From assembly GCA_001004105.1 (NCBI GenBank), contig LCQK01000003.1, positions 46,805 to 110,804 of the forward strand: a stretch of DNA of 64,000 nt, read 5' to 3'. Source of the DNA: Candidatus Jorgensenbacteria bacterium GW2011_GWB1_50_10 (GTDB taxonomy: Bacteria; Patescibacteriota; Minisyncoccia; UBA6257; GWB1-50-10). Below, piece after piece: positions 5,973 to 29,288 of the stretch; position 1 is the stretch's first letter, and each line of letters opens with the position of its first letter. The notes under the pieces are model-generated. The model was not told where the DNA came from and did not search any database. It was given only the letters and a program-made list of their open reading frames with translations. The translations under genes and the position numbers were made by a program.

Positions 5973-6964
5973 TGGTAAATCCCGAAGCAAAACTTAATCC
6001 GAAGATTTTCGACAAAGACGTGGAAATGAAACCGACGCGGGACGGGTATGGCGATGGTCTGGTTTTGGCTGCTGACCATAATCCTAACGTGGTCGCGCTC
6101 TGCGCCGATTTGACGGAATCAACGCGAGCGGAGGCCTTTGCGAAGAAATATCCAGATAGGTTTTTTGAATGCGGGGTGGCCGAGCAGAATATGGCAACCA
6201 TTGCCGCGGGCCTTGGCATCTCCGGGAAAATTCCCTTCATTTCTTCTTACGCGACTTTTTCGCCGGGCCGGAACTGGGAGCAGATTCGGACGACGATTGC
6301 CTACAACGACTCCAACGTGAAAATCGCCGGGCATCACGCCGGCGTCTCGGTGGGACCGGACGGCGCGACTCACCAGGCAACGGAAGACATCGCCATCATG
6401 CGCGCGATGCCCAACATGAAAGTTTTCGTGCCATGCGACGCGATTGAGGCAAAAAAACTGGTGGTCGCCTCCGCGAAAATATGGGGGCCGGTGTATATGC
6501 GTTTCGGCCGGGAGAAAAGCGCGGTTATCACGACCGCAAGAACCCCCTTTACGCCTGGCAAGGCGGAAATATTTTGGGAATCAAAAGGAAAAATCCAATG
6601 CGCGATTATCGCCTGCGGGATACTGGTCAAGAACGCACTTCTTGCGGCGAAAGAACTGGAGGAGGAAGGCATAAAAACTATTGTTATCAACAACCACAGC
6701 ATCAAGCCGATTGACGAGCAGAAAATCATTGAAGCGGCGGAAAAAGCCGGGGCAGTCGTCATAGTGGAAGAACATCAGGTCTCAGGCGGTTTGGGCGGGG
6801 CGGTAGCCGAAGTTTTGGCAAAACATGCCCCCACGCCCATTGAATTCGTGGGCATGCAGGACACTTTCGGTGAATCGGGCCCGCCCCATGAACTCATTGA
6901 GAAATACGGGATGGGAGTGAGAGACATAAAAGCGGCAGTTAGGCGTGTCATCAAGAGAAGATGA
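5972..6964 (+). CDS. transketolase, C-terminal (pyrimidine-binding) subunit
   Basis: Homology pattern of transketolase Pyr and C-terminal domains; overlaps upstream subunit stop (ATGA-like junction). Confidence 0.9.
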   Translation: MVNPEAKLNPKIFDKDVEMKPTRDGYGDGLVLAADHNPNVVALCADLTESTRAEAFAKKYPDRFFECGVAEQNMATIAAGLGISGKIPFISSYATFSPGRNWEQIRTTIAYNDSNVKIAGHHAGVSVGPDGATHQATEDIAIMRAMPNMKVFVPCDAIEAKKLVVASAKIWGPVYMRFGREKSAVITTARTPFTPGKAEIFWESKGKIQCAIIACGILVKNALLAAKELEEEGIKTIVINNHSIKPIDEQKIIEAAEKAGAVVIVEEHQVSGGLGGAVAEVLAKHAPTPIEFVGMQDTFGESGPPHELIEKYGMGVRDIKAAVRRVIKRR

Positions 6965-8205
6965 TGAAAAGAACCAATGGCTTCACTCTCATTGAACTTT
7001 TAATCGTCATCGCCATTCTTGCCGTCTTCGCAACGGTGACTGTTTTGGTCATCAACCCCGCCGAGCTCATCAGGGCCCGTCGCGACTCCACCCGGCTCTC
7101 CGACCTTAACACCATCAATAAGACCCTGGGCCTTCTCCAAACCGACCAACCTGGCGCCTCTTTCGGCTCTAGCAACAAGGTTTACGTTTCCATCCCCGAC
7201 ACCTCCGCGACCTGCGTGAACCTCGGCCTGCCCGCCCTCCCTTCCGGCTGGACTTACGGCTGTGTCACAACTGCCAACCTCTACAATGTTAACGGCACGG
7301 GCTGGATTCCTGTGAATCTCATGAGCTTTTCCGCCGGTTCGCCCCTCTCCCGCCTGCCCGTTGACCCCATCAACGCCACCTCAACCGGCAACTACTACAC
7401 CTACGTTACCGGGGGGAGTTGGGAGTTCACCGCTTTCCCGGAATCCTCCAAGTACAAAATGGGCGGCGGGAGCGACAAGACATCAGGTGACGGCGGTCCC
7501 TATCCCGAACTTTTTGAAATCGGTTCCAATTTAGCCCTTCACCCGGTGTCCAGAGACACTTCGCTTAAGGGCTATTGGAATTTTGAAGAGGGAAGCGGAG
7601 CGACGACTTATGACTCTTCGGGCGCCGGTAATGTCGGCACCTGGAACGGTTCAGGCAGTCACTGGGCTTCCGGGCGGGTAGGAACGTATGGGGGGCAATT
7701 CAACGGCACGAATGATTATTTGGATGTTGGAAATACAAGCTCCTTAAATATCACGGGCAATATCACTTTTATGGCTTGGGTTTATCTTACTTCTCTGCCC
7801 GGCACTGGCCAATATCGGGTTATCAATCGGGGCGTTGATGGGGGGTTCGGTATGTATGTAGGCGCTGGCGATCATCCTGATGACATAGAATGCGGTATCC
7901 GAACCTCAAATGGAGGCCGAGCGATATCTTCGGACGGTTACGCTTCAAATATTTTAAATATGTGGACACACTTAGCCTGCGTTTATGACGGGTCGGCCCT
8001 TCGTTTGTATGTGAACGGTTCTCAAATTGGTTCGGCGAGCGCCTCCGGAGAAAACAATGTCGGCGGTTATAATACCAGTGTCCGGATCGGATCGGATTGG
8101 CTACCCGGCAAATTTTTTCCGGGCAGAATTGACACGGTCCGCATTTACGACCGGGGTCTTTCAGCCGATGAAGTACGGGCAATCTATGAATCCGCTAACA
8201 ACTGA
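6961..8205 (+). CDS. type IV pilin-like protein with C-terminal LamG/concanavalin-A-like domain
   Basis: Class III signal and pilin helix MMKRTNGFTLIELLIVIAILAV...INPAELIRARRDSTR; pilin core shared with 20441 and 21047 paralogs (GSPLSRLP.DP, FEIGSNLAL); C-terminal LamG pattern DYLDVGN...ITFMAWVY...VRIYDRGLSADEV. Confidence 0.8.
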   Translation: MMKRTNGFTLIELLIVIAILAVFATVTVLVINPAELIRARRDSTRLSDLNTINKTLGLLQTDQPGASFGSSNKVYVSIPDTSATCVNLGLPALPSGWTYGCVTTANLYNVNGTGWIPVNLMSFSAGSPLSRLPVDPINATSTGNYYTYVTGGSWEFTAFPESSKYKMGGGSDKTSGDGGPYPELFEIGSNLALHPVSRDTSLKGYWNFEEGSGATTYDSSGAGNVGTWNGSGSHWASGRVGTYGGQFNGTNDYLDVGNTSSLNITGNITFMAWVYLTSLPGTGQYRVINRGVDGGFGMYVGAGDHPDDIECGIRTSNGGRAISSDGYASNILNMWTHLACVYDGSALRLYVNGSQIGSASASGENNVGGYNTSVRIGSDWLPGKFFPGRIDTVRIYDRGLSADEVRAIYESANN

Positions 8206-12053: not shown

Positions 12054-12749
12054 ATGGCGAAAAAGACGGATGAACTGGTGCAGTTTGCGGGCCACTTCCA
12101 GTCGCTCGCGACTGCGGTTTCCCGCAACCTCGAAGAGCGCGGCGTAAACGTTGTTGAGGCAATCGCGGAGGCCGCAAAGCCGCAAGGCGCTCGGGCGGTC
12201 GCGAAGATCGTAGACGCGCTCGCCGAACTCGTTGAAAACGGCAAGCGGGTCGTCGGCGCTCTCAATCTCATCGTGGCCGACATCGCCGTGAAGACCGAAC
12301 TCTTCACAAAAAATTCGTTCTTCGGCGAGGGGAGCCCAGTAAAACTCTACATCTGGGATAACTTCCGGAACTGGGTACTCACGGCTATCCTTGAGAATAT
12401 ACCTGCGTTCCAGGGTATGCTCGTGAAGCACCAACTCACGAAGGGGATGTATGACTCGGAGATTCTCTCCGGACTCGGGCATCCCACGCCGTTCTCACCA
12501 ACCGAGTTCGCGGCTGTCATTCGCGACCTCATCTCCAAGCAATCGAGAGGCGAGGAGGGCCTTCTCCTCACGAACGGCTACGCCAACATCTTCTATGTAC
12601 AGTTGCCTGCCGGCGCAGGCGGGGAAGATGCACGCGTGGTCGCGGTGCGCGTGACCTGGAACGCCGGGGACGACGACTGGCACCTGGACGCCTACGGCTT
12701 GGACGACGACGGGTGGGGTGACGGTGTCTGCGTGTTCTCTCGCAGCTGA
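12054..12749 (+). CDS. DGR variable (target) protein with C-terminal VR
   Basis: C-terminal 113 nt (12631-12743) near-identical to TR; ends CVFSRS; paralog at 48342-48932; contains degenerate palindrome insert LPAGAG at 12603-12622. Confidence 0.85.
   Translation: MAKKTDELVQFAGHFQSLATAVSRNLEERGVNVVEAIAEAAKPQGARAVAKIVDALAELVENGKRVVGALNLIVADIAVKTELFTKNSFFGEGSPVKLYIWDNFRNWVLTAILENIPAFQGMLVKHQLTKGMYDSEILSGLGHPTPFSPTEFAAVIRDLISKQSRGEEGLLLTNGYANIFYVQLPAGAGGEDARVVAVRVTWNAGDDDWHLDAYGLDDDGWGDGVCVFSRS
12603..12622. repeat. decayed palindrome-family copy TTGCCTGCCGGCGCAGGCGG inside DGR target 1 (encodes LPAGAG absent from paralog)
   Basis: Target 1 reads VQLPAGAGGEDARVVAV where paralog reads [11 protein letters not shown]. 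Confidence 0.5.
12631..12743 (+). repeat. DGR variable repeat (VR)
   Basis: 113-bp alignment to TR 12998-13110 with 14 mismatches, every one at a TR adenine. Confidence 0.9.
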
Positions 12750-12781
12750 TCTCGGATTTTCGGTCTCTTGGCAATAGTAGT

Positions 12782-12824
12782 GCGCCCCGTTCGAGTTCTT
12801 CGGAACTTGGACGGGGCGTTTTTG
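12782..12824 (+). terminator. GC-rich hairpin plus T-tract immediately downstream of VR (terminator and/or DGR homing-associated hairpin)
   Basis: GCGCCCCGTTCGAGTTC-ttcg-GAACTTGGACGGGGCG followed by TTTTTG. Confidence 0.5.
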
Positions 12825-12997
12825 TTATAATAAAAATGAAATTTTTTGACATCACTGCGGTCAAGGCTTCAGTGGGAAGATTTCAAAAAACAGAAAGGTC
12901 AGCTGGTGTAGGGCGCTAACGGGTGCGAAAGACCCGGCATTAGATGCAACGCTTAGAGGAATCAAAGCGCAGTGGCAAGGGCGGCGCTTTACACGAT

Positions 12998-13110
12998 AAC
13001 GCGTGGTCGCGGTGAACGTGAACTGGAACGCCGAGAACGACGACTGGAACCTGAACGCCAACGGCTTGGACGACGACAGGTGGAATGACGGTAACTGCGT
13101 GTTCTCTCGC
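12998..13110 (+). repeat. DGR template repeat (TR)
   Basis: AAC-codon-rich 113-bp copy of VR; all VR differences map to A in this copy. Confidence 0.9.
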
Positions 13111-13125
13111 CGCTTACCTTTTATA

Positions 13126-13461
13126 TCAGTTCTTTGGGAGCTGTTTTAGCCAACCGCCCAGCATTTTTCCAACTTCGTCAACTTTTCCAGAAAGCGCGGC
13201 GTATTTTTTCGTGTCCAGAGATTTGATTTGCCAGGCAATTTGGAGGAAAAATTTTAGTGAGTCAAGTTTAAAAGAGGAATTCCTGATTTTTGCAAACCGT
13301 TCGGCTGGCGTGAGAGGGGCGGCTGAGAAAATTTCTTCGATAATATCCAAGAAAAGCAAATCTACTTTTACGCCGAGAGTATAGCGCGAGGTTTTGGGAA
13401 AATGAGGCGCGAATTCTTGCCAAAGCGTGTAGGCCGCGATTAGTTTCTGAATAATTGGCAG
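13126..13461 (-). CDS. avd: Avd-like accessory variability determinant (four-helix-bundle, TIGR02436-like); start codon uncertain
   Basis: ...FPKTSRYTLGVKVDLLFLDIIEEI...LKFFLQIAWQIKSLDT...VDEVGKMLGGWLKQ pattern; frame open back to 13482 with no ATG/GTG/TTG (ORF table start is TTG at 13359). Confidence 0.6.
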   Translation of the reverse strand: MPIIQKLIAAYTLWQEFAPHFPKTSRYTLGVKVDLLFLDIIEEIFSAAPLTPAERFAKIRNSSFKLDSLKFFLQIAWQIKSLDTKKYAALSGKVDEVGKMLGGWLKQLPKN

Positions 13462-13498
13462 TTCATTCCGTCGGGGGGGGGTTAGAGGACGGGAATTT

Positions 13499-14482
13499 AT
13501 GAAAATTCAATTGAGCCATAAATTCGAAGATATTATTTCACTGGAAAATCTTTTGGAAGCATGGCGAGAATTTTTGCGCGGCAAGAGAAATAAAAGAGAC
13601 GTTCAGGAATTCTCATCGCGTTTAATGGATAACATTCTATTACTTCACAGCGAACTTCGCAATAAAACCTACAAGCACGGGAAGTACGAAGCCTTTAACA
13701 TCTCCGACCCCAAACCGAGAAACATCCACAAAGCCGCCGTCCGCGACCGCCTACTTCATTACGCTATTTACAGGGTTTTATATCCGTTTTTTGATAAGGT
13801 ATTCATCGCCGATTCTTTTTCCTGCCGTTTGGGAAAAGGGACGCACAGAGCCATCAACCGCTTTAGAACTTTTGCTTATAAAGTGAGTAAAAATAATACC
13901 AAAACCTGCTGGGTTTTAAAGTTGGATATTAGGAAATTCTTCGCGAGTATTGACCATGAAATTTTGATAAAAATTCTTGAGGAATACATACCCGACCAAG
14001 ACATTATCTGGTTGCTGAAGAAAGTGATAGAAAGTTTTTATTCGACCGAACCCGGCAAGGGCCTGCCTTTAGGCAATTTAACCTCCCAGCTTTTAGTAAA
14101 TGTTTACATGAACAAGTTTGACCAATTTGTGAAACACAAGTTCAAGGCCAAGTATTACGTGAGATACGCCGATGATTTTGTGATTGTGTCGAAAAACGGA
14201 ATATGGCTTGAAAGTTTAATTCCGAGAATCAGCGAATTTCTAAACAGAGAATTGAAGTTAAAACTTCACGACGATAAGATATTCATTAAAACTTTAGCTT
14301 CGGGAGTAGATTTCCTTGGCTGGGTTCACTTTCCGGATTACCGAGTTCTGCGAACCACGACCAAAAGAAGAATGTTTAAAAGAATCAAAGAACATCCCGC
14401 GCCGGAAACAATAAATTCTTATTTGGGATTATTAAGGCACGGGAACGCTTATAAATTAAAAAGAAAAATTATTGCTGAATAA
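13499..14482 (+). CDS. DGR reverse transcriptase
   Basis: RT motifs incl. YADDFV; motif 4 LGNLTSQ (I/LGxxxSQ hallmark of DGR RTs); 327 aa without maturase/endonuclease domains. Confidence 0.9.
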
Positions 14483-14498
14483 TTTTTTTTGTGTTTTA

Positions 14499-15242
14499 AT
14501 GGCGTTTATGGAAGCTAGTATTAGCAAGATAATTTTAGAGATTCGGGCGGGCACGGGCGGGGACGAGGCCTCGCTTTTTGCCGGCGATTTGGCGCGGATG
14601 TATCAGAGGTTTGCCGCCCGGCGGGGCTGGAAATTCTCGACGCTCGATGCGAGCGAGTCCGGCGCGCGCGGCTATAAGACGTTCATCGCGGAGATCGGCG
14701 GCCCGGGCGTCTACGAGGCATTGAAGAACGAATCCGGCGTGCACCGGGTGCAGAGAGTGCCGGATACCGAACGGGGCGGCCGGGTGCATACCTCAACCGT
14801 ATCGGTCGCGGTTTTACCCGTAGTGGAAACCAAGGATTTTCAAATTAAAGAAAGCGATTTGGAAGTGACTTTCTCCCGCGCCGGCGGTCCCGGCGGCCAG
14901 AACGTGAACAAAGTGGAAACTGCGGTTCGAATCACCCATAAACCCACCGGCGTTGTCGTAGGTTCCAGGGAAGAACGGAGCCAGCACGCCAATCGCGAGA
15001 AAGCGATGGAGGTCTTGCGGGCCAAGCTTTACGAGGCGCAGAAAGAACAGCAAGTGGGGTCGGTTGCGGAGTTGCGGAGAGGGCAGATCGGCTCGGCCGG
15101 ACGGGCGGAGAAGGTAAGGACATATAATTTTCCGCAGGATAGAATTACAGATCACAGAGTAAGTAAAAAATGGAGTAATATTGAAAAGATATTAGAAGGT
15201 AATCTTGACCCAATCATACAGGCATTTTTGAAAGTCAATTAA
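14499..15242 (+). CDS. prfA: class I peptide chain release factor, RF1-like, lacking N-terminal domain 1
   Basis: [12 protein letters not shown]..., RVQRVPDTE (PxT-type), GGQ motif [28 protein letters not shown]; begins where RF1 domain 2 begins; stop TAA just upstream of the ORF; 3' end is AT-rich and duplicated downstream. Confidence 0.8.
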
Positions 15243-15248
15243 AAAATC

Positions 15249-15268
15249 CCTGCCTGCCGGCAGGCAGG
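15249..15268. repeat. 20-bp perfect palindrome CCTGCCTGCCGGCAGGCAGG (copy, intergenic, 6 nt after prfA stop)
   Basis: Exact 20-mer also at 11153, 17913, 51722, 63521. Confidence 0.9.
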
Positions 15269-15269
15269 C

Positions 15270-15372
15270 GCACCTATAATTTTCCGCAGGACAGGATAAC
15301 CGACCACCGTCAGGGCAAAAAGGTTTCAAATATTCTGAAAGTTCTCGACGGCGATTTGGACAAACTAACCGG
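15270..15372 (+). pseudogene. displaced original 3' end of release factor gene ([35 protein letters not shown])
   Basis: In-frame-translatable GC-rich duplicate of the RF C-terminal coding segment located after the palindrome; homologous to 15127-15242. Confidence 0.6.
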
Positions 15373-16870
15373 CCGTTAAAATTTCTATATCCTTTTGGAA
15401 TTGCTGGGCTTTCACGACCACCGGTTCGCCGTAAGCCCAGCGGTAGTAATACCACCGGCCACCGGCGTAGTATCTTGCCGCGGCGCAGCGTTCGGCAAGG
15501 ACTTGGGCATCGGCGATGTTTCTGTTTTCGCTCACGTAATTCCGGCAAGCGCTGGAATTCAGGGCGTCTTTGAGATACAAGGAAGTCGCAACGAAAGCGT
15601 CGGCGTTTGACCAGGGATTGGAAGGAGTTTGGCCGGTGATTTTCCCAATATAATCCTTGCTTTGGTTATACTCCCAGGAACTGCCGTTTTTCTCCCAACC
15701 GCCGTAGATGGCCCAGGTTGAGGGAATGAATTGGGCCGGGCCCATGGCGCCGCCGTAGGCGCCGTCTCTGTTGGCACAGGAAACCTTCGCCACGGTTGAA
15801 TTCGGGTCAATGCCGAGCTTGGAAAGAATGGCGAGGAAAATCGGAACGTCGCGGGTGGGGTGCATGGCGCCCTGGTAGCTGCAGCGGCCGACGTTTTTCC
15901 CCAGAAGAGATTCTTGCTGAAGAATGGCGAGAAGAAAAGCGGCCCGGACCCCGGTTGCGCCTTCGGCAAGGCGGGCGTATTTATAGGCCTCTTCAAAAGT
16001 GAGTTCGCCGCCTCCCAAAAGACGGAAAATTCTGCTTCTTATTTGAGCGGCAGTGGCTTGGGTTTCTTTCAGGATTTTTTGGTATTCGGATTCTTTGCCT
16101 TTGGTTACGGTCAGAAGCTGATTTTTTTCCGCTTGGGTCGTCGCGACGCTCTTTTTTTGCGATTCCTGATAATTCTTGAGATTTTCCACGTCGGATTTTT
16201 CCGCGGCGAGCTCCTGTTTTTGCTCAAGCAATTCCACCCGAAGGGCGACAACTTCGTTTAAGGCCGTCCGGATGTTGGACTGAACCAGGGTTATGTTGTT
16301 GACGTCACCGAAGAAATCCGAAAGATTGGCATTGGCCAGCAACACCTCGATCAAGCTTTGGGCGTCGGCTTCATAGAGGTCGCGGACGCCTCTCGCAAGG
16401 GCCGTTTTATGGCCGTCAATTCTGTTTTCGGTAACGTTTATGTTCTTTTGAGTGCTCGTTATTTCGTCGTCCAATTTCTGGAGATTCAGGTTGACCGCTT
16501 TAATTTGGAGGTTCAACTGGCTGATTTTGGCGTTCAGGGATTTTATTTCGTTAGTGAGGGTTTTGCCCTGTTTTTGATATTCGGCAACCGTACTTTGATG
16601 TTCAAGGATTTGGCGCTCCAATTCGGCAAGTTCGTTTTCAAGTTTCTCCCGTTCTTCCTGGCTGGTCGCGCCGTTTTCCGTGCCCGTCATCTCGGCTGCC
16701 TGGGTCGGAGTGTTCAGTTTGGTTCCGAGAAGAAGCCCCGAAAAAGCGAGGAGAACCAAAACTCCTCCTACGAATTTGATTGATTTGGTAAGAGGGATCC
16801 GGATAGCGGTCGAATAGGAGAGATTGAGACGTCTTTTACGGCTGGCCTTAATATCGTAGATTTTGCGCAT
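15365..16870 (-). CDS. membrane-anchored coiled-coil protein with C-terminal lytic transglycosylase (MltB/SLT_2-like) domain
   Basis: N-terminal TM, long heptad-like Q/E/K/L region, C-terminal [13 protein letters not shown] motif. Confidence 0.75.
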
Positions 16871-16979
16871 CTACTTAATATAATAACACTGATATATATT
16901 CTGTTTCATCCCGTTAGAGATTGCGCTCGCGCGCAAGCTCGCCCGAAAGGCCTTTGGGGCGGGCTATCTCTAAAAAGGA

Positions 16980-17669
16980 TTATTTTTTCTTCTCTTCTTC
17001 CTTGGGCGGTGTTTCTTTTTTCTCCGGCTCCGCTGCCTGCCTGCCGGTAGGCATGGCTTTCGCTTCGGTTTCGGCCGGAGCGGCCGGTGTTTCGGCTATC
17101 GGAGGCGGCGCAACAACTTCCTCCTTCACTTTTTCGGTTACGGTCGCAATCACGGTTTCCTCCGGCGCGAGAATTTTTACTTCGGAAGGCGCGCGCAGGT
17201 CGCTAACGTGGATGCTGTCGCCCATTTTCTCCAGCTTGCCCAAATCAACCTGAAAGGAGTGGGGGATTTTGTCGGGTAGGGATTTGACTTCAATTTCGTG
17301 CAGCACCCGGACGATCACCAAACCGGCTTTTTCCGCCGGAGCGGTGCCTGTGAATTCCACCGGCACTTTTGTTTCAATCGCCTCATCCATTTTAATTTGA
17401 TGGAAATTCACCGAAAGCGTTTTTCTGGTCAGGGGATGTTCCTGAACCTCGGAAATTAAGATTGGAATTTTTCCGCCCTTCTCGTTTATCAAATAAACGA
17501 CGGTGTGGCTGCCGGCTTTGCGGTAGACTTTAACGAAATCGTTTTCCGAAACGGCAAGGTGCTGGTTTAGAACGCCGCTCCCGAAAAGTTCGGCCGGAAC
17601 CAAACCCGCCCTCCGGAGGGATTTCACTTTTTTCCCCAAAATTTCCCTTGTTTTGACTGCGAGTTCCAT
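16980..17669 (-). CDS. rplY: 50S ribosomal protein L25 (Ctc form) with charged C-terminal tail
   Basis: MELAVKTREILGKKVKSLRRAGLVPAELFG... ; tail contains degenerate palindrome-encoded MPTGRQ. Confidence 0.85.
   Translation of the reverse strand: MELAVKTREILGKKVKSLRRAGLVPAELFGSGVLNQHLAVSENDFVKVYRKAGSHTVVYLINEKGGKIPILISEVQEHPLTRKTLSVNFHQIKMDEAIETKVPVEFTGTAPAEKAGLVIVRVLHEIEVKSLPDKIPHSFQVDLGKLEKMGDSIHVSDLRAPSEVKILAPEETVIATVTEKVKEEVVAPPPIAETPAAPAETEAKAMPTGRQAAEPEKKETPPKEEEKKK
17036..17055. repeat. degenerate copy of 20-bp palindrome (CCTGCCTGCCGGTAGGCATG, 2 mismatches), in-frame in rplY tail
   Basis: Seen in sequence; encodes MPTGRQ on - strand. Confidence 0.6.
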
Positions 17670-17675
17670 TTCTTT

Positions 17676-17900
17676 TTATTTTTTTGTTTTCTTCGTCCCA
17701 GCCTTAGCGCGTCTCGCCCGGAAGCGTTCCACCCGACCGGTTGTGTCAATCAACGTCTTCGCACCGGTGTAGAACGGGTGGCACTTGGAACAAATTTCCA
17801 CCTCGATTTTTTCCATGGTGGCGCCGACCGTAAATTTGTTGCCGCAGGCGCAAGTAACGTGGGCTTTGGGGTAGTATTGCGGGTGGATATCTTTTTTCAT
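17676..17900 (-). CDS. rpmE: 50S ribosomal protein L31
   Basis: [46 protein letters not shown]; start taken at internal ATG (ORF table extends artificially upstream through the palindrome). Confidence 0.9.
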
Positions 17901-17912
17901 AGGTTTTAGCTC

Positions 17913-17932
17913 CCTGCCTGCCGGCAGGCAGG
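17913..17932. repeat. 20-bp perfect palindrome CCTGCCTGCCGGCAGGCAGG (copy, between rpmE start and rRNA promoter)
   Basis: Exact repeat. Confidence 0.9.
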
Positions 17933-17969
17933 TATTATTTATACATATAGTAATAGGACTGGCAAGTGC

Positions 17970-17997
17970 TTGACACCGATACAAAGTTTCCTATAAT
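17970..17997 (+). promoter_or_regulatory. consensus sigma70 promoter TTGACA-16nt-TATAAT, likely rRNA promoter
   Basis: Perfect hexamers about 175 nt upstream of 16S 5' end. Confidence 0.6.
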
Positions 17998-18120
17998 GAA
18001 AGCATTATGTAGCACGGGTTTTTAAAACTTCTGTAATATGAGTTTTAAGACACCCGCGATGGGTGTTTTGTTATCCCCGATACATAACGCAAATTGAAAA
18101 CTCCACCAGTAATTGAAAAC

Positions 18121-18135
18121 TTTTTTAGTTGTCCC
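18121..18135 (+). other. 5' half of 16S processing stem (TTTTTTAGTTGTCCC), complementary to 19783-19797
   Basis: 15-nt perfect complementarity bracketing the 16S gene, as expected for an RNase III processing helix. Confidence 0.55.
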
Positions 18136-18167
18136 AATTTATTTTGAATTTGGAAAGCCAAATTCTT

Positions 18168-19651
<1,484 letters not shown>

Positions 19652-19782
19652 TATTCTCTTCAGAGAGAGTAATAGTCGATTGCAAGATTGCTGACTGCAG
19701 GGTTCGTAATTCAGAATTCTGCAATGAGCAATTAGCAATAAAATTAGAGGTGTTAGTCGTGGAGCCTGAAGTCACGACCTTG

Positions 19783-19797
19783 GGACAACTAAAAAAG
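19783..19797 (+). other. 3' half of 16S processing stem (GGGACAACTAAAAAA)
   Basis: Reverse complement of 18121-18135. Confidence 0.55.
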
Positions 19798-19981
19798 TTT
19801 TTAATGAAAAGAAAGCGAGAATACCCTCGCTACCGTTCGCTCGCCCAGCGAGCTCGCTCACTTGCACTCTCGCCTCGCTCGTCCCGCCAAGCGGGACACC
19901 GTGCCCGCTCGGCTCAAGAGCGGCGCTCGAATATTCTCGCTTTCTTTTGCGTGGGGCAGGAAGGAATAGTATAATAATGTT

Positions 19982-20359
19982 ATGCCCGACCAGAAAACCA
20001 TCCTTTTAGTTGAAGACGAACCGCTTCTTGCGAATCTTCTGAAGCAGCGCCTGGAGAAAGAGGGTTACACAATGCTTTCCGCCGGCGACGGAGAGGAAGC
20101 GCTTTCCGTTCTAAAGGCAAATCATCCGGACCTGATACTTCTTGATATCATTTTGCCAAAAATGTCCGGCTTTGAACTGATGGAAAAATTGAAGGACAAC
20201 CCGGCTTACGGCTCATCGCCCATCGTTATCATTTCCAATTTGGGGCAGGACTCAGATATAGAGAAAGGAAAGATACTCGGCGCTATCGGTTACTTTGTCA
20301 AGGCCAAGCTTTCCATTGAGGATTTAATTAAAAGAATCAAGAGTTTTCTTAACGCCTGA
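19982..20359 (+). CDS. single-domain response regulator receiver protein (CheY-like)
   Basis: LLVEDEPLL...DLILLDIILPKMSGFEL...K; TATAAT 7 nt upstream of ATG. Confidence 0.85.
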   Translation: MPDQKTILLVEDEPLLANLLKQRLEKEGYTMLSAGDGEEALSVLKANHPDLILLDIILPKMSGFELMEKLKDNPAYGSSPIVIISNLGQDSDIEKGKILGAIGYFVKAKLSIEDLIKRIKSFLNA

Positions 20360-20440
20360 TTTATTCAAGTAAACCTAGGTTGCATACCCCCTGTGGATAA
20401 GTGCACTATCCGGGAGGGGTTAATTTGATATACTAAAAGA

Positions 20441-21038
20441 ATGAAAAAAGGTTTTACTCTTATCGAGCTTCTGGTCGTTATCGCCATTTTGGCGGTTCTT
20501 GCGACCGCAGTGGTCTTGGCTATCAACCCGGCCGAGCTCGGCCGAGCTCATTCGGCAGGCGCGGGATTCCACGAGAATCTCGGATTTGGCGGCAATAAAC
20601 AGCGCCATCGCTCTCTATTTGTCGGACATTACTTCTCCCGGCTTGGGTGGTCCGAATGGTGCTTCCTGCACTAACGCTGCCCGTTGCACTTCTGGGACAA
20701 CCGAATTTTTCTCGGCGAGCATTGGGAGCTGCGGGACAAACGCCACGACCACTGTTGACGGCAACGGCTGGGTGTCGGTTGATTTAGCGGACATCTCGAG
20801 CGGTTCGCCGCTCTCCCGTCTGCCCCTTGACCCCAATAATGGCCAAGGAAGCGGCGATTGCGCCGCCGATGGCACGACTATTTGCTTCTACGCCTTCGGC
20901 TGTAATGGCACGAACTACGAAATTAACGCGGTAATGGAGAGCACGAAATTCGCCGATGACGGCGGTGCCGCCGTTGAAGATACGGACGGCGGGGACCAAC
21001 TGGATATCTACGAAGTAGGGAACAATCTAGCCCTATAG
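20441..21038 (+). pseudogene. type IV pilin gene (copy 1) disrupted by a 10-bp tandem duplication (GGCCGAGCTC x2 at 20530-20549)
   Basis: N-frame MKKGFTLIELLVVIAILAVLATAVVLAINPAEL then frameshift; removing one 10-bp unit restores ...INPAELIRQARDSTRISDLAAINSAIALY... continuous with ORF 20499-21038. Confidence 0.7.
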
Positions 21039-21046
21039 CTTCAATG

Positions 21047-21596
21047 AAAAAAGGTTTTACTCTTATCGAGCTTCTGGTCGTTATCGCCATTTTGGCGGTT
21101 CTTGCGACCGCAGTGGTCTTGGCTATCAACCCGGCGCGTTTCTGACATTGCCGCGGTTAATAGTGCGGTTATTCTTTATCTTGCTGATGTTAGAACTCCT
21201 GGCTTAGGCGGTCCTAATGATGCGGCCTGTTCTTCGGCAACGGAACGTTGCACTGCCTCAAGCACAACAGCCAGGAAAACCGGCGGCGGTTCTTGCACCA
21301 CGCATAATACATCAACTATCGTTGACGGCAACGGTTGGGTGTCGGTTGATTTTTTGAATATTTCTTCGGATTCACCGCTATCTCGACTGCCATTCGACCC
21401 GAATAATGGGTCAACTATCTGCGGAACAGGCGTTAATGCTTGCTACTACTCATTTATTTGCAACGGCACAAGTTTTGAGATAAATGGCGCGATGGAGAGT
21501 ACTAAATTTTCTAATACTGGCGGCTCTGACGTGGAGTCCGATGATGGCGGCAATCAGGCAGACCTCTACGAGGTAGGCAACAAGCTGGATATTTAA
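21047..21596 (+). pseudogene. type IV pilin gene (copy 2), same 95-bp 5' end as copy 1, frameshifted by a deletion at the same site (about 21139-21142)
   Basis: First 95 nt identical to 20441-20535; N-frame stops at 21145 (INPARF*), remainder of pilin (RVSDIAAVNS...LGGPN...GSDSPLSRLPFDP...YEVGNKLDI) in +1 frame. Confidence 0.65.
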
Positions 21597-21605
21597 TTTA
21601 AGTTA

Positions 21606-22196
21606 ATGAACTTTGCCGGCGCTTCTTCTTTGGCGGTTTTAGTTGCCGCTTTTATTTTTCAGCTCGTTGTCTATTGGTTTAAGTCCTATAAATCTAATTG
21701 GACTCTTATTGCTTATAGGGTTAACAAGTCGCTCTTTTGGCTTGCCGCCGTTTTTGTTTTTCTTCTCTACCTCTACCTCGTCTATGCTCAATTTATTGCC
21801 TGGCGTGATGGCGGGGAACTGCTAAAACGTTTAGTGCCCCCTTACCAGAGCGTCACCTATGTTTTCGGTTATCATTTCACCCGTTTCGCGCTCTATTATT
21901 TGATTTCATTTGCCGCCTCCGTGTTGTTTTTATCGGCGGTAACTTTTTTAAATAAAAAGTTCAACGAGAAGTTCTTCGAAAAAGAAGAGCCTTATCTCGG
22001 CGCTATCGCCATTTTTCTGCTCGGCAATCCTTTATGGCGATTTGCCTGGATTTATTATTTGATAGCGTTACTTGCCGTTGCTTTTGTCGGGTCATTAGTC
22101 GTGAGTCACGTGTTAAAGAAAAGCGAGCGTTTCTCTTTATATTATTTATGGCTGCCGGTTGCTATTCTTACCTTGTTGCTGGTGAAATTTTTGTGA
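21606..22196 (+). CDS. hypothetical polytopic membrane protein (196 aa) between pilin genes and pilB
   Basis: Multiple hydrophobic helices; no recognisable motif. Confidence 0.55.
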   Translation: MNFAGASSLAVLVAAFIFQLVVYWFKSYKSNWTLIAYRVNKSLFWLAAVFVFLLYLYLVYAQFIAWRDGGELLKRLVPPYQSVTYVFGYHFTRFALYYLISFAASVLFLSAVTFLNKKFNEKFFEKEEPYLGAIAIFLLGNPLWRFAWIYYLIALLAVAFVGSLVVSHVLKKSERFSLYYLWLPVAILTLLLVKFL

Positions 22197-22405
22197 TTGG
22201 CTACCCACGCCCTAATTTTGTAAGTGTTTCCGCGGCAACCCGCTTCGCCCACCGAGGGGTGTGCCTATTCGGCACACGCAGGTTGGTGGAGATTGACTAA
22301 AATTGTGTTAGTTCAAAATTTGGAAAGGTTCTCACGGCAAAATTAGAGCGGGGTACTCAATTTTATGTTAAAATTTAACCAAGGTTAAATTTTAATAAAA
22401 TTGGT

Positions 22406-24124
22406 ATGATAAACCTCCCTCCCGAAAAATTGAAAGATATTTTGGTAAAGCAGGGGCTTATTGACCCCGCTCTTTTTGATAATCTTCAAATTGAATCCCA
22501 GAGAAAAAGGCAAGACCTCGCGGATATTCTCATCTCGCAGGGCTTGGTCAATAAAGATTACCTTTATCTTCTAATCGCCCGGGCGCTTGGCGTGGAACGG
22601 GTTAATCTGGGAGTGATGAAAATAGACGAAAACATCCTTCGTTTGATTCCTGAAGACGCCGCCCGGCGCCGAAATGTGATTGTCTTCGGCCGGGAAGCCG
22701 ACGGCAGATTTCAAGTGGCGATGGATAACCCAACCGATTTAGAAACCATTGATTTTCTCCAGCTTCGTTTGGGCGGGCCCGTGAAACCGTATCTTGCGAC
22801 TGACGAAGATTTAAACCGCGGTTTTTCGCTTTACGAAAAACGCCTCACCCAGGATTTCAAGAAAATAATTGAGGAGAGTGTCAAAGAGTCGCTGCGCTCC
22901 AAAGCCAAGGGCGATTTAAAAGAAGCGGCCTCCGATTTGCCGATCGTCGCCATCGTTGACAATCTGATGGCTTACGCGCTCTCTTCCCGCGCTTCGGACA
23001 TTCACTTTGAGGTTTTAGACGATGGAGTTTTGGTTCGCTATCGGATTGACGGTGTGCTCCACGAGGTTATCAGGATGCCGAAGGAAATCCACGCTGCCAT
23101 TGTCGCCCGCATAAAGATTTTGGCAAGCCTGCGCGTTGACGAGCACTACCGCCCCCAAGACGGCCGCTTCCGCCATAAAATCGGCGACGAATTAGTGGTG
23201 GATGTCCGCGTCTCCATCATCCCAACTTTTTACGGCGAAAAGGTTGAGCTGCGGCTTCTAGCTGCCGCCCAGAAACCCCTATCGCTTTCCGAAATCGGCG
23301 CCTCCGAAGACACGGTAAAGGTTATTCGGGAAGCCATTAAAAAAAGCTACGGAATGGTTTTAATTTGCGGTCCGACTGGTTCCGGTAAAACGACCACGCT
23401 GTACTCCATTATGAACATTTTAAATAAGCCAGACGTGAACATCATTACCGTTGAAGACCCGATTGAGTACGACATGCGCTACGTAAATCAAGTGCAGGTG
23501 AATGTCCAGGCTGGCATTACTTTTGCCTCCGGCCTGCGTTCTCTTTTAAGACAGGACCCGAACATCATTATGGTCGGCGAAATCCGCGACTCGGAAACCG
23601 CCAACATCGGCGTACAGGCGGCCCTGACCGGCCACCTGATGCTTTCTAGTTTGCACACCAATGATGCCCCGACCGCCGTGCCGCGGCTTATGGATATGGG
23701 TATCCCACCGTTTCTCGTGGCCGCAGTTTTGAATGCCGTGAGCTCCCAACGCTTGGCCCGCCGGATTCATTTGGAGTGCATTGAATCATACGCGCCCGAG
23801 GCAAGCGTTCGTGCATCCATCAGCAAAACTCTAGAGGAAATCGGCGCCGACCAGAGCCAAGTCAGAATCCCCAAGATATTTTATCGGGGCCGGGGCTGCG
23901 CCGCCTGTAATCATTCCGGTTATTACGGCCGCATAGGTCTCTTTGAAACTTTAGACGTCACCGAAAACGTGAGGAAAATCATTATTGACAGGAATTTTAG
24001 TTTGGACAATTTGCGGAAGGTCGGTCGCGAAGAGGGGATGACGACGATTTTTGAAGACGGTTTGCGGAAGGTGGAGCGCGGCTTAACAACCATCGAAGAA
24101 TTATTTAGAGTTATAAGAGAGTAA
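22406..24124 (+). CDS. pilB: type IV pilus assembly ATPase PilB (GspE family)
   Basis: N-terminal GspII_E domain, Walker A GPTGSGKTTTLY, Asp box, His box, tetracysteine motif CAAC... Confidence 0.95.
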   Translation: MINLPPEKLKDILVKQGLIDPALFDNLQIESQRKRQDLADILISQGLVNKDYLYLLIARALGVERVNLGVMKIDENILRLIPEDAARRRNVIVFGREADGRFQVAMDNPTDLETIDFLQLRLGGPVKPYLATDEDLNRGFSLYEKRLTQDFKKIIEESVKESLRSKAKGDLKEAASDLPIVAIVDNLMAYALSSRASDIHFEVLDDGVLVRYRIDGVLHEVIRMPKEIHAAIVARIKILASLRVDEHYRPQDGRFRHKIGDELVVDVRVSIIPTFYGEKVELRLLAAAQKPLSLSEIGASEDTVKVIREAIKKSYGMVLICGPTGSGKTTTLYSIMNILNKPDVNIITVEDPIEYDMRYVNQVQVNVQAGITFASGLRSLLRQDPNIIMVGEIRDSETANIGVQAALTGHLMLSSLHTNDAPTAVPRLMDMGIPPFLVAAVLNAVSSQRLARRIHLECIESYAPEASVRASISKTLEEIGADQSQVRIPKIFYRGRGCAACNHSGYYGRIGLFETLDVTENVRKIIIDRNFSLDNLRKVGREEGMTTIFEDGLRKVERGLTTIEELFRVIRE

Positions 24125-24130
24125 AATTTT

Positions 24131-25342
24131 ATGCAATATCATTACATCGCATCGCAGCCGGACGGCAAGGTGTCTGAAGGTGACGTTGACGCCAAGGACG
24201 TTGCCGAAGTCCTGACGTATCTTACCTCGCATGGGCTTCGGCCGGTTTCCGTAAAGCCGATTGCGCAAATTTCCAAAAAGAAAAGGTTGGGTCTTTTTGG
24301 CGGGACCATTAATCTAACCGACCAGATATTCCTCTCAAAATATCTGGCGCTGATGCTCAAAATCGGCACAAGCTTATTGCAAGCTATTAATATCTTGGTT
24401 GAAGATTTTCAGAAATCGTCCGTGCGGGCTTTTTTAGTGGAAATCCGCTCCAACCTTGAAAAGGGCCGACCCTTTCATACAACCTTCGCCAAATATCCGA
24501 AAATCTTCAGCCAGGTCTACATTAATCTGGTGAAAGCCGGCGAGGCCTCCGGCAACCTGGAAAATGTTTTTGAAAACCTGACGGCATCTCTCTCTAAAGA
24601 AAAAATGCTCAAAGACCAGATGCGGAGCGCGCTCGTTTACCCGATTTTGCTTCTTGTTACTTCCGCACTGATTTTGGTGTTTCTCGTCACCTTTGCCCTG
24701 CCGAAAATAGCCGGCGTTTTTTTGGAATCGGGTTTTGAGCCGCCTCTTTTTTCAAGAGTTGTTTTTAGTATCGGCCTTTTCTTCGGCAAGTTCGGGATTC
24801 TTGTGATAGCTGCCGTCTTCGGCGGTGCGATTGCGCTTGTTGCGGCCTACCGTTCCTTGCTTTTGTTCAAAAAATTCGTCACCTCCGTCATAAGTGAAAT
24901 CCCCGTCATTAAAGACATTATCAGAAAAATTGCCCTCCAGCGTTTTGCCGCTACCCTTGCATCGCTCATTAAAGCCGGCGTGCCATTAACCAATGCTCTT
25001 GAAATTACTGCTGATGCCGCTGGCAACATTGAGTTGAAACAGGCGCTTTTGCGGATTTCTCGGGAAGGATTAATGAAAGGGCTTACCGTGGGCGATGCCT
25101 TTAAAAGGGAACCATTTTTCCCGCGAACCGTCGTTAATTTAGTCGCTATTTCCGAAAAAGCCGGTCATATTGAAGAGGTTTTGGAAACGCTTGCTGATTT
25201 CTACACTTCGGAAATTGATAGTTCCTTAAAGACGCTTGTTTCATTCCTCGAGCCCGCTCTTCTTCTTGTTATCGGTTTTATAATTGGCTTGATTGCCCTT
25301 GCTATAATAGTGCCTATTTACCAGCTTACCACCCAATTCTAA
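24131..25342 (+). CDS. pilC: type IV pilus inner-membrane platform protein PilC (GspF family)
   Basis: Two T2SS-F repeats, 403 aa. Confidence 0.9.
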   Translation: MQYHYIASQPDGKVSEGDVDAKDVAEVLTYLTSHGLRPVSVKPIAQISKKKRLGLFGGTINLTDQIFLSKYLALMLKIGTSLLQAINILVEDFQKSSVRAFLVEIRSNLEKGRPFHTTFAKYPKIFSQVYINLVKAGEASGNLENVFENLTASLSKEKMLKDQMRSALVYPILLLVTSALILVFLVTFALPKIAGVFLESGFEPPLFSRVVFSIGLFFGKFGILVIAAVFGGAIALVAAYRSLLLFKKFVTSVISEIPVIKDIIRKIALQRFAATLASLIKAGVPLTNALEITADAAGNIELKQALLRISREGLMKGLTVGDAFKREPFFPRTVVNLVAISEKAGHIEEVLETLADFYTSEIDSSLKTLVSFLEPALLLVIGFIIGLIALAIIVPIYQLTTQF

Positions 25343-26430
25343 TGAGGGGCTTTACTCTTATAGAAGTTTTAATAACGGTCGCAATTATTACAGCCGTTTC
25401 CGCGGCCGGTTATGTCGCGTTTTCCAAGTTCAAAGGTTCGCAAGCCGTTGAGCTCACAATGAACGAAATTACGGCCGTCATAAAGGACGTCCAAAAAAGA
25501 GCAGTGACACAGCAGGACGGCAAGCAATGGGGGCTCCGTTTCACTAATTCAACGTCAACCACGCACAGCTATCAGGTTTGGAGCGGTCCGAGCTATGCTT
25601 CGGGAACGATTAGCAGGACCTATTACCTCGGTCGCGGCACGCTCTTCGGCAACCCCGCCGACGATCTGAATGTAGACGAAATTTTCTCGGCGATAAGCGG
25701 GAAGCTCTTGGAGACAAGAGTCATTTCTTTAATAAATCGAAGAAAAGATGGTGTTGTCGGCGACATAATTCTTACTTCCCGGGGCGCGATTACAACGAGA
25801 AAAGAGAGCGGTCTTGTCGGCTATTGGCATTTTGACGAGAGTACAGCAACAACGACTTATGACGCTTCGGGGTTTGCCAATGCCGGCACGCTCACCAACG
25901 GTCCGGCATGGCAATCGGCGTCTAATTGCAAGGCGGGGACATGTTTGAGTTTTGACGGGACGAATGATTATGTGAATGTGATTGATTCAGCCTCACTCGA
26001 TATCACTGGCGCAATCACTGTTAGCGCTTGGGTATACGCGGATAGTTACCCCTCTACTTATCCAACGGTAGTGGCAAAAGGAAACTCCGCAAGCGCTTGG
26101 GAGCTTGACGTGAAGAATGATGGAACGATCGAATGGGAAGGGTTTATCGGTGGTACTCAAAGGATTTGCAATGGTGGCTCATTTAACCTTAACCAGTGGG
26201 TTTATATTGTAGGCCTATTTGATGGTAGCGACATGAAAATATTCGTTAATGGTTCAGAGGTGAAGTCATGTTCTTTCCCAGGGGTGTTAGGTACAAATAA
26301 TTCTGCCTTGGAAATCGGTTCCAGAACCAATGGAGGCGCCGTTTGGGACGGTTTTATTGATGGAGTCCGTATCTACAACAGCGCCTTGAGCGCCCAGGAA
26401 ATTTTGAATTTATATAATGATTTAAAATAA
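25342..26430 (+). CDS. prepilin-type N-terminal cleavage/methylation protein (minor pilin) with LamG-like domain
   Basis: MRGFTLIEVLITVAII...; LamG pattern GLVGYWHFDEST...LSFDGTNDYVNV...ITVSAWVY...VRIYNSALSAQEI. Confidence 0.8.
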   Translation: MRGFTLIEVLITVAIITAVSAAGYVAFSKFKGSQAVELTMNEITAVIKDVQKRAVTQQDGKQWGLRFTNSTSTTHSYQVWSGPSYASGTISRTYYLGRGTLFGNPADDLNVDEIFSAISGKLLETRVISLINRRKDGVVGDIILTSRGAITTRKESGLVGYWHFDESTATTTYDASGFANAGTLTNGPAWQSASNCKAGTCLSFDGTNDYVNVIDSASLDITGAITVSAWVYADSYPSTYPTVVAKGNSASAWELDVKNDGTIEWEGFIGGTQRICNGGSFNLNQWVYIVGLFDGSDMKIFVNGSEVKSCSFPGVLGTNNSALEIGSRTNGGAVWDGFIDGVRIYNSALSAQEILNLYNDLK

Positions 26431-26434
26431 ATTT

Positions 26435-27700
26435 ATGAGAAGGTTCTGGCGCGATATAAAAGGACAAAGTTTGATTGAAGTTTTAATCGGTTTGGCGATT
26501 GGTGCCGTTTTAATCGGCGCTGCGAGTTTGGGCGTTACTTTCATGCTTCGCTCTAGCGCCGCCAGTCAGAATGTTCAGATTGGAACGGGTCTTGCCCAAG
26601 ATTTGGTGGACAAGGCTCGTTCCGTATCGGCCGCCAAGTGGCAGGATATTTACCACCTCACCAAAGGAACGAGCACATCTTATTTTGTAAATGCTTTTGG
26701 CACGCAGCTTGTTGTTGTAGAAGGTCAGGAAGGCGTTATCAGCAATGAAAATACGAATGGTTTGGTCGGTTACTGGAAGTTTGATGAGGCGACGAGTACG
26801 GCGACTACTACGACCTTCGACGCTTCCGGAAAGTCCAACCACGGCACTCTCACGAGCGGCGTTTCAAGAGCTACCTCAACTTGTAAAGTTAGTTATTGTT
26901 TGGATTTTGATGGAGTGGATGATTATGTTGATTCCGGAAGCGGTTCAAGTTTGGATATTACTCAAAATGTAACACTCGTGTCGTGGGTTAAGTTGGATAC
27001 TTATACCTCGGGCGGCACTAACACTGACAGGGCAAGCATTGTGCAGAAGACGGGGCAATATTATATGACAGTGAATTCAGCAAACGGAACACTCGACGCC
27101 TTCTTTGGTGGGGTCACTGGTAGTCATACGCCTTCAAATTCTACAGTTTCATTGAATCAGTGGATGCACACCGCAATCACTTATGATGGTGCAAATATAA
27201 AATGGTATATAGACGGTGTTTTAGACAAAACATCGGCCGCGACCGGTACCATTACTAGTGATCCCCGAAGCGTTCGTATCGGCGGGGAACCGGCTTTTGG
27301 TCGTTTTCTGAACGGTTCCATTGACGAAGTCCGCGTCTACAACCGCGCTCTTTCCGCCGACGAAATCCAGCGGCTTTGGAATTCCGTGCCTTTCACGCAT
27401 TACTTTAACGTTGGAAACGTAAACCGCGATACGAACGGCAATATTGTTTCCTCCGGCGGAAATGAAGATCCTTCAACCCAAAAAATCACGGTGACTGTGC
27501 AGTGGCCGGGGAGCGGCAGTAATGTCGGTCAGATTCAAATTGTTGATTATTTAACCCGCTGGCAGAACCAAGTGTTTCAGCAAAGCGATTGGCTGGGTGG
27601 TTCTGGCCAAATAGGCCCGATTACCTTACCGAATTCTAAATACGACAGCGCGACGAGCGTTTCCAACCCCGCCGGTTCAATCAGAATTCAAGGACTATAA
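26435..27700 (+). CDS. pseudopilin-like protein with LamG-like domain
   Basis: KGQSLIEVLIGLAIGAVL N-terminus; GLVGYWKFDEAT...LDFDGVDDYVD...VRVYNRALSADEI. Confidence 0.75.
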   Translation: MRRFWRDIKGQSLIEVLIGLAIGAVLIGAASLGVTFMLRSSAASQNVQIGTGLAQDLVDKARSVSAAKWQDIYHLTKGTSTSYFVNAFGTQLVVVEGQEGVISNENTNGLVGYWKFDEATSTATTTTFDASGKSNHGTLTSGVSRATSTCKVSYCLDFDGVDDYVDSGSGSSLDITQNVTLVSWVKLDTYTSGGTNTDRASIVQKTGQYYMTVNSANGTLDAFFGGVTGSHTPSNSTVSLNQWMHTAITYDGANIKWYIDGVLDKTSAATGTITSDPRSVRIGGEPAFGRFLNGSIDEVRVYNRALSADEIQRLWNSVPFTHYFNVGNVNRDTNGNIVSSGGNEDPSTQKITVTVQWPGSGSNVGQIQIVDYLTRWQNQVFQQSDWLGGSGQIGPITLPNSKYDSATSVSNPAGSIRIQGL

Positions 27701-27765
27701 TATTAGAAGGACTATAACATTAGAAGCAGATTCAAGTTTATCCGCTTCTATTAAAAAATTTCAAT

Positions 27766-27799
27766 GCTTCAATTTATCCCATATGGGATAAATTGAAGC
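27766..27799. terminator. 34-bp perfect palindrome GCTTCAATTTATCCCATATGGGATAAATTGAAGC between convergent genes
   Basis: Seen in sequence. Confidence 0.55.
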
Positions 27800-27845
27800 G
27801 GGTCTAAATTTTACTAAACAACCTTAACTTTTCTCCTACCAACCT

Positions 27846-29288
27846 CTACAATGTAACTACAAAACTCCCACTCGGGATATTGGTGATTTCCTGCGGTAAG
27901 ATAAAGCGCAGGTTTTTCTCCTTTTGTTTTTCAGGGAGGTAGGTGTCGGTCAAGAACATTACGGTTTGGGCCGGCGAGCCGATTTTGCGGATGTCGTGGC
28001 CACCGGTGTCTACGACCAGATATTTTGCCGTTGCCGGGGGCAAAGCATTTATCTCTTCGGCAATTTGAACATATTTCGCGTTGAATGCTTCCGCCACGTC
28101 CGCCCGTTTCGCCCAATCAAGGAAGTAAGTTTGGTAGGCGTTTAGAATAAGTAAAATAAGAAAGAGAAAACTGATTGCTTTAAGTAAACGGCTGTTAGTT
28201 TCCGTTTTCAAAAATTCGTAGAGCGAGGCGCCGCCCAAAGCCGCAATTATGAAAACCGGGGGAGCCATAAGAAACGAGCGGAGCGCGTGCGGCAGGCCTT
28301 CGTTTGAAACAACAACGGGAAGAGTGGCAACGATGAGCCAACTGAACAAAATCCAAAAAGCGAAGCGGCCCGGCATTTTTTTGTTGAGGAGACCATAAAG
28401 CAATCCCAGAGCGAAAAGAATTCCAACTGGCCAATAAAGAAGCGGCTCACCCGGAAGGTTGTGCCGCGGGTTCCAGTCGCCCGCAAAATTGAACATGCCG
28501 GCGGTCTTTAGGATATTCAACCCCAAATCTTTTAGCGGAGTAAGGGAATTAAAAATTGAGATTTCACTCGTGCGGCCGAAGAAGTCCTGTGGATGGCTCC
28601 AAAAATAAATTCCGAGCGGCAGAGAAATAAGAACGGCCGCAACAACAAAGATTGAACCGATGCGCAAACTTTTCCGCCAGCCGAATATTTTTCCGCAGAA
28701 AACAAGAATCAAGATGACGAGAAGCGGGGTAGCCCGGTAAGCGATGTAGGAATACATTCCCAAGCTGTAAATAATTCCGGCCAAGGCCGGCAGCCACTTT
28801 GTTTGCCGCCTGAACGACAAGAGGAGAAAATACAATCCCCATGTCAGGAAAAATGGCGCCATGATTGCCCGAAAGCCAACGCGAGAGAAATTTATATGCC
28901 AGAAACTCGTAGCGATTAGAAAAGTAGCGAGTAGCGCGATTCGTTTATCCTCAAATAGCTCTCTCGTTAAAAAATAGATTCCCAAGACGGTTAAGATGCC
29001 GAAAATCGCGCTCGGCAACCTTAATACCCACGGTTCATTCGCACCAAAAATTTTTAAGAACAGCGCTTGAATATTGATGAAAAGCCCTTCCCGGCCGTTG
29101 TTTTCTTCATAGAAAACCTTGAATCCGCCGGCTGGCGGAGCCGCTTGCAGCGCTTGTACCGCGTTATTGCCGTTCATTGCTTCATCGGAGTAAAGGCCAG
29201 GCGGAAGGTTTTTAAAGTCATAAAACCTAAAGAAAGAAGCAATAAGGACAATCAAAAGAATCAGGAAAATTTTTGAACGAGAGTGCAT
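27846..29288 (-). CDS. GT-C fold glycosyltransferase, PMT_2/ArnT-like (family 39/83) membrane protein
   Basis: N-terminal FRFYDFKNLPPGLYSDEAMNG motif typical of ArnT/PMT family, more than 10 TM helices. Confidence 0.8.
   Translation of the reverse strand: MHSRSKIFLILLIVLIASFFRFYDFKNLPPGLYSDEAMNGNNAVQALQAAPPAGGFKVFYEENNGREGLFINIQALFLKIFGANEPWVLRLPSAIFGILTVLGIYFLTRELFEDKRIALLATFLIATSFWHINFSRVGFRAIMAPFFLTWGLYFLLLSFRRQTKWLPALAGIIYSLGMYSYIAYRATPLLVILILVFCGKIFGWRKSLRIGSIFVVAAVLISLPLGIYFWSHPQDFFGRTSEISIFNSLTPLKDLGLNILKTAGMFNFAGDWNPRHNLPGEPLLYWPVGILFALGLLYGLLNKKMPGRFAFWILFSWLIVATLPVVVSNEGLPHALRSFLMAPPVFIIAALGGASLYEFLKTETNSRLLKAISFLFLILLILNAYQTYFLDWAKRADVAEAFNAKYVQIAEEINALPPATAKYLVVDTGGHDIRKIGSPAQTVMFLTDTYLPEKQKEKNLRFILPQEITNIPSGSFVVTL

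Follow-up and report, generated by a model that had tools for sequence, protein, structure and literature searches.

Tandem paralogs of the type IV major pilin are known from the pilus operons of Patescibacteria/CPR bacteria, PilA1 and PilA2 of Saccharibacteria being one example. In the pilE/pilS system of Neisseria, the silent pilS cassettes have neither a promoter nor the 5' constant region and serve as donors of variable 3' segments. As regards genome records themselves, local assembly errors located at short repeats of metagenomes assembled from short reads have been described by Chen et al. (2020, Genome Res, PMC7111523), and a duplicated overlap at a join is one of the error classes in that description.

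In the 64-kb stretch of DNA analyzed here (hereafter, the window), two tandem pilin genes share an identical 5' end, and both are thrown out of frame at the corresponding place. The original prediction had reported this arrangement, and the observation holds overall with small numerical corrections. Its interpretation is another matter: the part concerning gene conversion stands, whereas pilE/pilS-like variation and ON/OFF switching do not. Very probably, both frameshifts are local assembly errors of this one record and the two pilin genes are in truth intact.

The two genes are part of a type IV pilus operon in a groundwater Parcubacteria/Paceibacterota (Candidatus Jorgensenbacteria-like) bacterium. 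The order of the genes is CheY-like regulator, pilin 1, pilin 2, a 196-aa membrane protein, PilB, PilC and two LamG pilin-like genes (Table 1), so that the proteins carrying PF00437/PF05157 and PF00482 are encoded 0.8-3.7 kb downstream of the pilins. The CheY-like regulator was indeed found upstream of the pilins, as had been pointed out. No prepilin peptidase (PilD, Peptidase_A24) was seen among the scanned ORFs, and a promoter/terminator consensus scan around the pilin genes gave sites no commoner than in shuffled sequences.

Table 1. Features of the pilus locus, with positions counted from the first letter of the window.
Feature	Position	Strand	Remarks
CheY-like single-domain response regulator	19982..20359	+	first gene of the cluster; PF00072, 88 bits; identical protein on 17 contigs
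Identical 5' tract, copy 1	20440..20532	+	base before the ATG, codons 1-30 and two bases of codon 31
Pilin gene 1	20441..21038	+	in the window, a 77-aa ORF and a +1-frame ORF, split by the duplication
Pilin gene 1, form in the other assemblies			588 nt, 195 aa; KKU16017.1; PF07963 N_methyl, 34.3 bits
10-bp tandem duplication (GGCCGAGCTC twice)	20530..20549	+	spans gene position 93; this record only
Identical 5' tract, copy 2	21043..21135	+	100% match to copy 1
Pilin gene 2	21044..21596	+	in the window, a 33-aa ORF and a +1-frame ORF
Pilin gene 2, form in the other assemblies			585 nt, 194 aa; KKU16016.1
Junction of the 32-nt loss (TGAGCTCATAAGACAAGGAAGGGATTCAACGC absent)	21134..21137	+	starts at gene position 93; this record only
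196-aa predicted multi-pass membrane protein	21606..22196	+	no Pfam match; directly 3' of the pilins in every assembly of the population
PilB/GspE-type assembly ATPase	22406..24124	+	PF00437, 392 bits; PF05157
PilC/GspF-type platform protein	24131..25342	+	PF00482, 174 bits
Two pilin-like proteins, 362 aa and 421 aa	25342..27700	+	N-methylation motif and LamG (Laminin_G_3)

Some other elements of the region deserve mention. A complete bacterial 16S rRNA gene lies at 18166-19651, 330 nt upstream of the CheY gene, and a perfect 17-nt inverted repeat (19807-19823 / 19932-19948) is placed between it and the pilus operon; no 23S rRNA, 5S rRNA or tRNA genes were found in the 64 kb. Far from the operon, at 6961-8205, there is a third LamG pilin-like gene that encodes 414 aa with N_methyl and Laminin_G_3 domains; it is intact, as had been stated, and it is surrounded by central-carbon genes, namely transketolase halves on its upstream side and a PfkB kinase on its downstream side.

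The tract common to both pilin genes comprises 93 nt that are 100% identical between the copies, that is, 92 nt counted from each ATG, and none of 100 shuffles matched this. The length had been given as 95 nt and the start of the second copy as 21047; the shared tract and the tandem pilin were both recovered, with the former slightly shorter and with the ATG of pilin 2 three nucleotides earlier, 5 nt past the stop codon of pilin 1. When the intact forms of the two genes are compared, a single difference is present in the first 100 nt, and this first difference is located at gene position 93 (C in copy 1, T in copy 2). Past the tract, blocks of 20 codons are roughly 37-72% identical in nucleotides, so the reported drop is real and the single figure of about 60% is better replaced by this range. 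Both encoded proteins begin as type IV prepilins, with the prepilin-peptidase motif G|F-T-L-I-E, Glu at +5 and a hydrophobic alpha-1 helix (MKKG|FTLIELLVVIAILAVLATAVVLA), and both intact proteins score 34.3 bits against PF07963, for which the cut-off is 21.2.

As for the lesions, the 10-bp duplication in copy 1 was present just where it had been described, and apart from this GGCCGAGCTC GGCCGAGCTC the 64 kb contains no exact tandem duplication whose unit reaches 9 nt. Deleting one unit restores the pilin frame, giving an ORF of 588 nt whose 195-aa product is the intact protein of other assemblies. Copy 2, said to lack about 30 nt at the corresponding site and to be out of frame, is in fact short of exactly 32 nt, with a placement that is ambiguous by 2 nt (GC on either side). 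In both copies the sequence 3' of the lesion lies in the +1 frame, and both lesions begin no more than 3 nt from gene position 93, the first base that discriminates between the paralogs. The junction sequences of the record are CCCGGCCGAGCTCGGCCGAGCTCATTCGG and CAACCCGGCGCGTTTCTGAC; both junctions were absent from 241 million JGI metagenome records. Likewise, a product lookup with the translations of the truncated ORFs (77 aa and 33 aa) and of the two +1-frame ORFs gave no match on record. In relatives at 46-59% identity, the stretch that is disrupted in the window, INPAEL(L/I)(K/R)Q.RD..R(I/V)SD, is in frame in all cases.

Other assemblies of the same locus were retrieved through the exact products of two flanking genes, the CheY-like gene and the gene of the 196-aa membrane protein, and this lookup returned 19 loci on 17 contigs. 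The contigs come from ENA MEGAHIT assemblies (k141/k127), JGI metagenomes, Logan (SRR1658343, SRR1658462), ANAN16 scaffolds and two GenBank genomes, GCA_001002095.1 (Parcubacteria group bacterium GW2011_GWC1_45_9) and GCA_001003525.1 (Candidatus Jorgensenbacteria), and all the compared contigs have a common origin in the Rifle groundwater project PRJNA268031. Two of them (L001 and L012), aligned with positions 13982-28196 of the window (~14.2 kb), showed zero substitutions, and the two indels were the sole differences. None of the contigs covering the two lesion sites has a substitution relative to the window, and judged by their sequence, the compared contigs are of the same genotype as the window. 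GGCCGAGCTC occurs once in each of the 11 distinct contigs that cover the copy-1 site, and the 12 distinct contigs covering the copy-2 site all carry the extra 32 nt TGAGCTCATAAGACAAGGAAGGGATTCAACGC. Gene calls on the sister contigs gave both pilins in intact form, at 195 aa and 194 aa, with the N_methyl motif in both; KKU16017.1, the 195-aa protein, is recorded from 9 contigs and KKU16016.1, of 194 aa, from 7. Both pilin genes are 100% identical across these 11-12 contigs, which derive from several runs and several assemblers.

The two lesions are thus private to one record and sited where a repeat ends, and for this reason we regard the frameshifts as artefacts. They are missing from independent assemblies of the same genotype, and their location coincides with a repeat boundary, which is also a branch point of the assembly graph. 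A repeat of ~100 nt within the locus would not be unambiguously traversable by short-read assembly graphs, and its end at gene position 93 would be the branch point at which the graph leaves the repeat. The two errors of the record at this point may have been made by the assembler, the scaffolder or a gap-closer: in copy 1, two pieces overlapping by 10 bp would have been joined with the overlap retained from both, generating the duplication, and in copy 2, 32 nt would have been dropped at the join. We infer the exact assembler step behind each lesion from the form of the lesion, and neither junction would be expected to have support in the reads, an expectation for which the independent assemblies are the evidence base. 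It had been anticipated that reads uniformly supporting intact frames would reveal an assembly or consensus error; the evidence does point to such an error, although it does so through independent assemblies and not through read pile-ups. The other suggestion made in this respect, population heterogeneity collapsed by the assembler, finds no echo in the independent assemblies, which are free of any heterogeneity.

An alternative to be considered is that the lesions are real and strain-specific, so that both major pilins were inactivated in a sub-population or sample and persist as pseudogenes or as a minor haplotype. Duplication by slippage and deletion at microhomology are known products of replication slippage, and the sequence context is suitable, with the 2-nt GC microhomology at the deletion and palindromic GGCC/GAGCTC sequences at the duplication; it is therefore plausible, against the artefact reading, that a 10-bp duplication and a 32-nt deletion flanked by GC arose by replication slippage in vivo. 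However, the window has zero substitutions over 14 kb with respect to the intact genotype, so that both inactivating indels, independent of each other, could have arisen only extremely recently. Moreover, both indels sit at the edge of the repeat, they are unseen in the 11-12 other contigs and in the JGI metagenomes, and sibling assemblies carry different private indels at the same repeat. We consider this alternative unlikely. It is also conceivable in principle that a biological hotspot exists where a gene-conversion tract ends, and the lesions might then be real minority alleles produced by template switching at that edge, that is, heritable non-piliated (OFF) variants of which one haplotype was captured; this version we consider very unlikely.

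The behavior of the sibling records at the same repeat is relevant here. In GCA_001003525.1, the sequence immediately to the left of each pilin ATG is incomplete: 141 nt are missing at copy 1 and 46 nt at copy 2. The 141-nt deletion, private to that genome and placed at the left edge of the repeat, accounts for the protein KKU94110.1 (L011 4542-5501, LCPI01000003.1), a 319-aa "Two-component response regulator" in which the CheY-like gene and pilin 1 are fused; the second deletion, of 46 nt, takes away the end of pilin 1. Two ANAN16 scaffolds (L003/L013 and L014) contain 100 N between adjacent bases inside the copy-1 tract, and other contigs start or stop in or beside the repeat (L005, L007, L009, L010 and L016-L019). 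GCA_001002095.1 (L015, LCLN01000039.1) lacks two stretches, of 76 nt and 140 nt, corresponding to positions 22608-22683 and 26211-26350 of the window; the first loss splits pilB into 86 aa and 467 aa, and the second shortens a LamG pilin-like gene to 301 aa. No other assembly has either deletion, and both are probably local assembly errors too. Taken together, three sibling genome records depart from the consensus of the other assemblies through indels, six in all and 10-141 nt long, without a single substitution, a pattern that points to assembly error and not to divergence.

The proposal that this site is a recombination or slippage hotspot, serving as a pilin ON/OFF contingency locus or for pilE/pilS-like antigenic variation, was attractive since the lesions occupy homologous positions of two paralogs and both shift to +1, and the identical 5' tract shows that the copies have exchanged sequence. 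For slippage-based switching, it should be noted that the ON allele has one 10-nt unit and no repeat tract, that neither lesion is seen in other assemblies, and that the unit number and the variable region are constant among assemblies from several runs and samples. With regard to antigenic variation, each gene is complete and has an ATG of its own, and neither is a promoterless, 5'-truncated cassette; the 11-12 assemblies are invariant. Only two copies of the 5' tract are present in the 64-kb window, without a third one, and the last 32 nt of the constant tract gave 0 matches in a scan of the genome-contig collection. No G4 motif (G3+N1-7 x4) was found on either strand of 19650-21700. None of the marks of a pilE/pilS system (truncated silent cassettes in the window, variation of the variable region, a G4 initiator) was observed, nor were those of phase variation, a multi-unit tract and a polymorphic number of units, since all the other assemblies have one unit. 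We regard programmed switching, in either form, as extremely improbable.

A further possibility is that both pilins are expressed by programmed +1 ribosomal frameshifting, an idea suggested by the fact that both copies need the same +1 shift. Nevertheless, the same genotype is in frame in every other assembly, the relatives are all in frame, and copy 2, even after the shift, would still be short of ~10 residues of the conserved alpha-1 helix. In view of the in-frame alleles of the same genotype elsewhere, this explanation was rejected, and its probability is close to nil. Returning to the artefact reading, the frameshifts are almost certainly neither pseudogenes nor a switch, and not a real biological feature.

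Another source of variation that might be invoked is a diversity-generating retroelement (DGR) located at 12054-14482, 7 kb upstream. DGRs are known in CPR bacteria, and they produce substitutions at A sites, not indels. In the present case, the variable repeat (12632-12743) forms the 3' end of an ORF at 12054-12749 (231 aa, no Pfam match), the template repeat is at 12999-13110 and the reverse transcriptase at 13499-14482 (PF00078, 327 aa); in the 112-nt homologous core of the repeats, 13 of the 13 mismatches fall at template adenines. The DGR was rejected as the cause of pilin variation: its variable repeat belongs to the ORF at 12054-12749, and the indels are not of the DGR type.

What is biological here is the identity of the 5' tracts. 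Within a genome, they share 99-100% of their nucleotides, as opposed to 63-74% between genomes, even though the encoded peptide is conserved; the C-terminal parts show 61-63% aa identity within a genome and 51-61% between genomes. On diverged paralogs, this is the signature of gene conversion that had been recognized at the outset. The 5' tract would thus evolve in concert, most likely by intergenic gene conversion, as far as can be read from sequence comparison. Two tandem pilin copies are also present in the relatives L020, L021, L023, L025 and L028, and the 5' tracts of the paralogs are identical at the nucleotide level in the window and in L020, a trait that L023, L025 and L028 do not share. 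L020, the closest genome in the species collection (59% identity), carries at 872-2147 (JBAYKY010000019.1, Candidatus Paceibacterota) a tandem pair of pilin paralogs that agree in their first 113 nt and in 3 nt upstream, and past this shared tract its paralogs are 47-85% identical. The shared tract of L020 indicates that 5'-tract homogenization recurs in the lineage.

Some practical consequences can be drawn. A short repeat of 92 nt repeatedly breaks short-read assemblies at the pilin locus, and it would be a mistake to list the frameshifted pilins of this record among pseudogenes or to read them as phase variation. In the same way, the CheY-pilin chimera KKU94110.1 is not trustworthy as annotated.

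When the locus is set beside the described systems, it resembles the errors of Chen et al. (PMC7111523) in that the lesions of the window lie at a repeat boundary and are private to one record, and in that, among the siblings, the repeat is a site of spurious N gaps, private deletions and broken contigs; it differs in that the case of the window has been judged from assemblies and not from read-level proof. The likeness to simple-sequence-repeat contingency loci is that the tandem duplication of the window throws a gene out of frame, although the intact allele has one unit and hence no tract that could slip. With the pilE/pilS system of Neisseria, the locus has in common several pilin-coding sequences and signs of non-reciprocal sequence exchange; in contrast, here it is the 5' end that is homogenized, the two genes are complete and 5 nt apart, there is no G4 element, and the variable part is constant between assemblies. 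From the pilin pairs of Patescibacteria/CPR bacteria, the locus differs in nothing notable: the G|FTLIE motif, the hydrophobic helix and the adjacent PilB and PilC are all present here. The real biology of the locus would then be ordinary for type IV pili, with two intact tandem paralogs whose first 92 nt evolve in concert.
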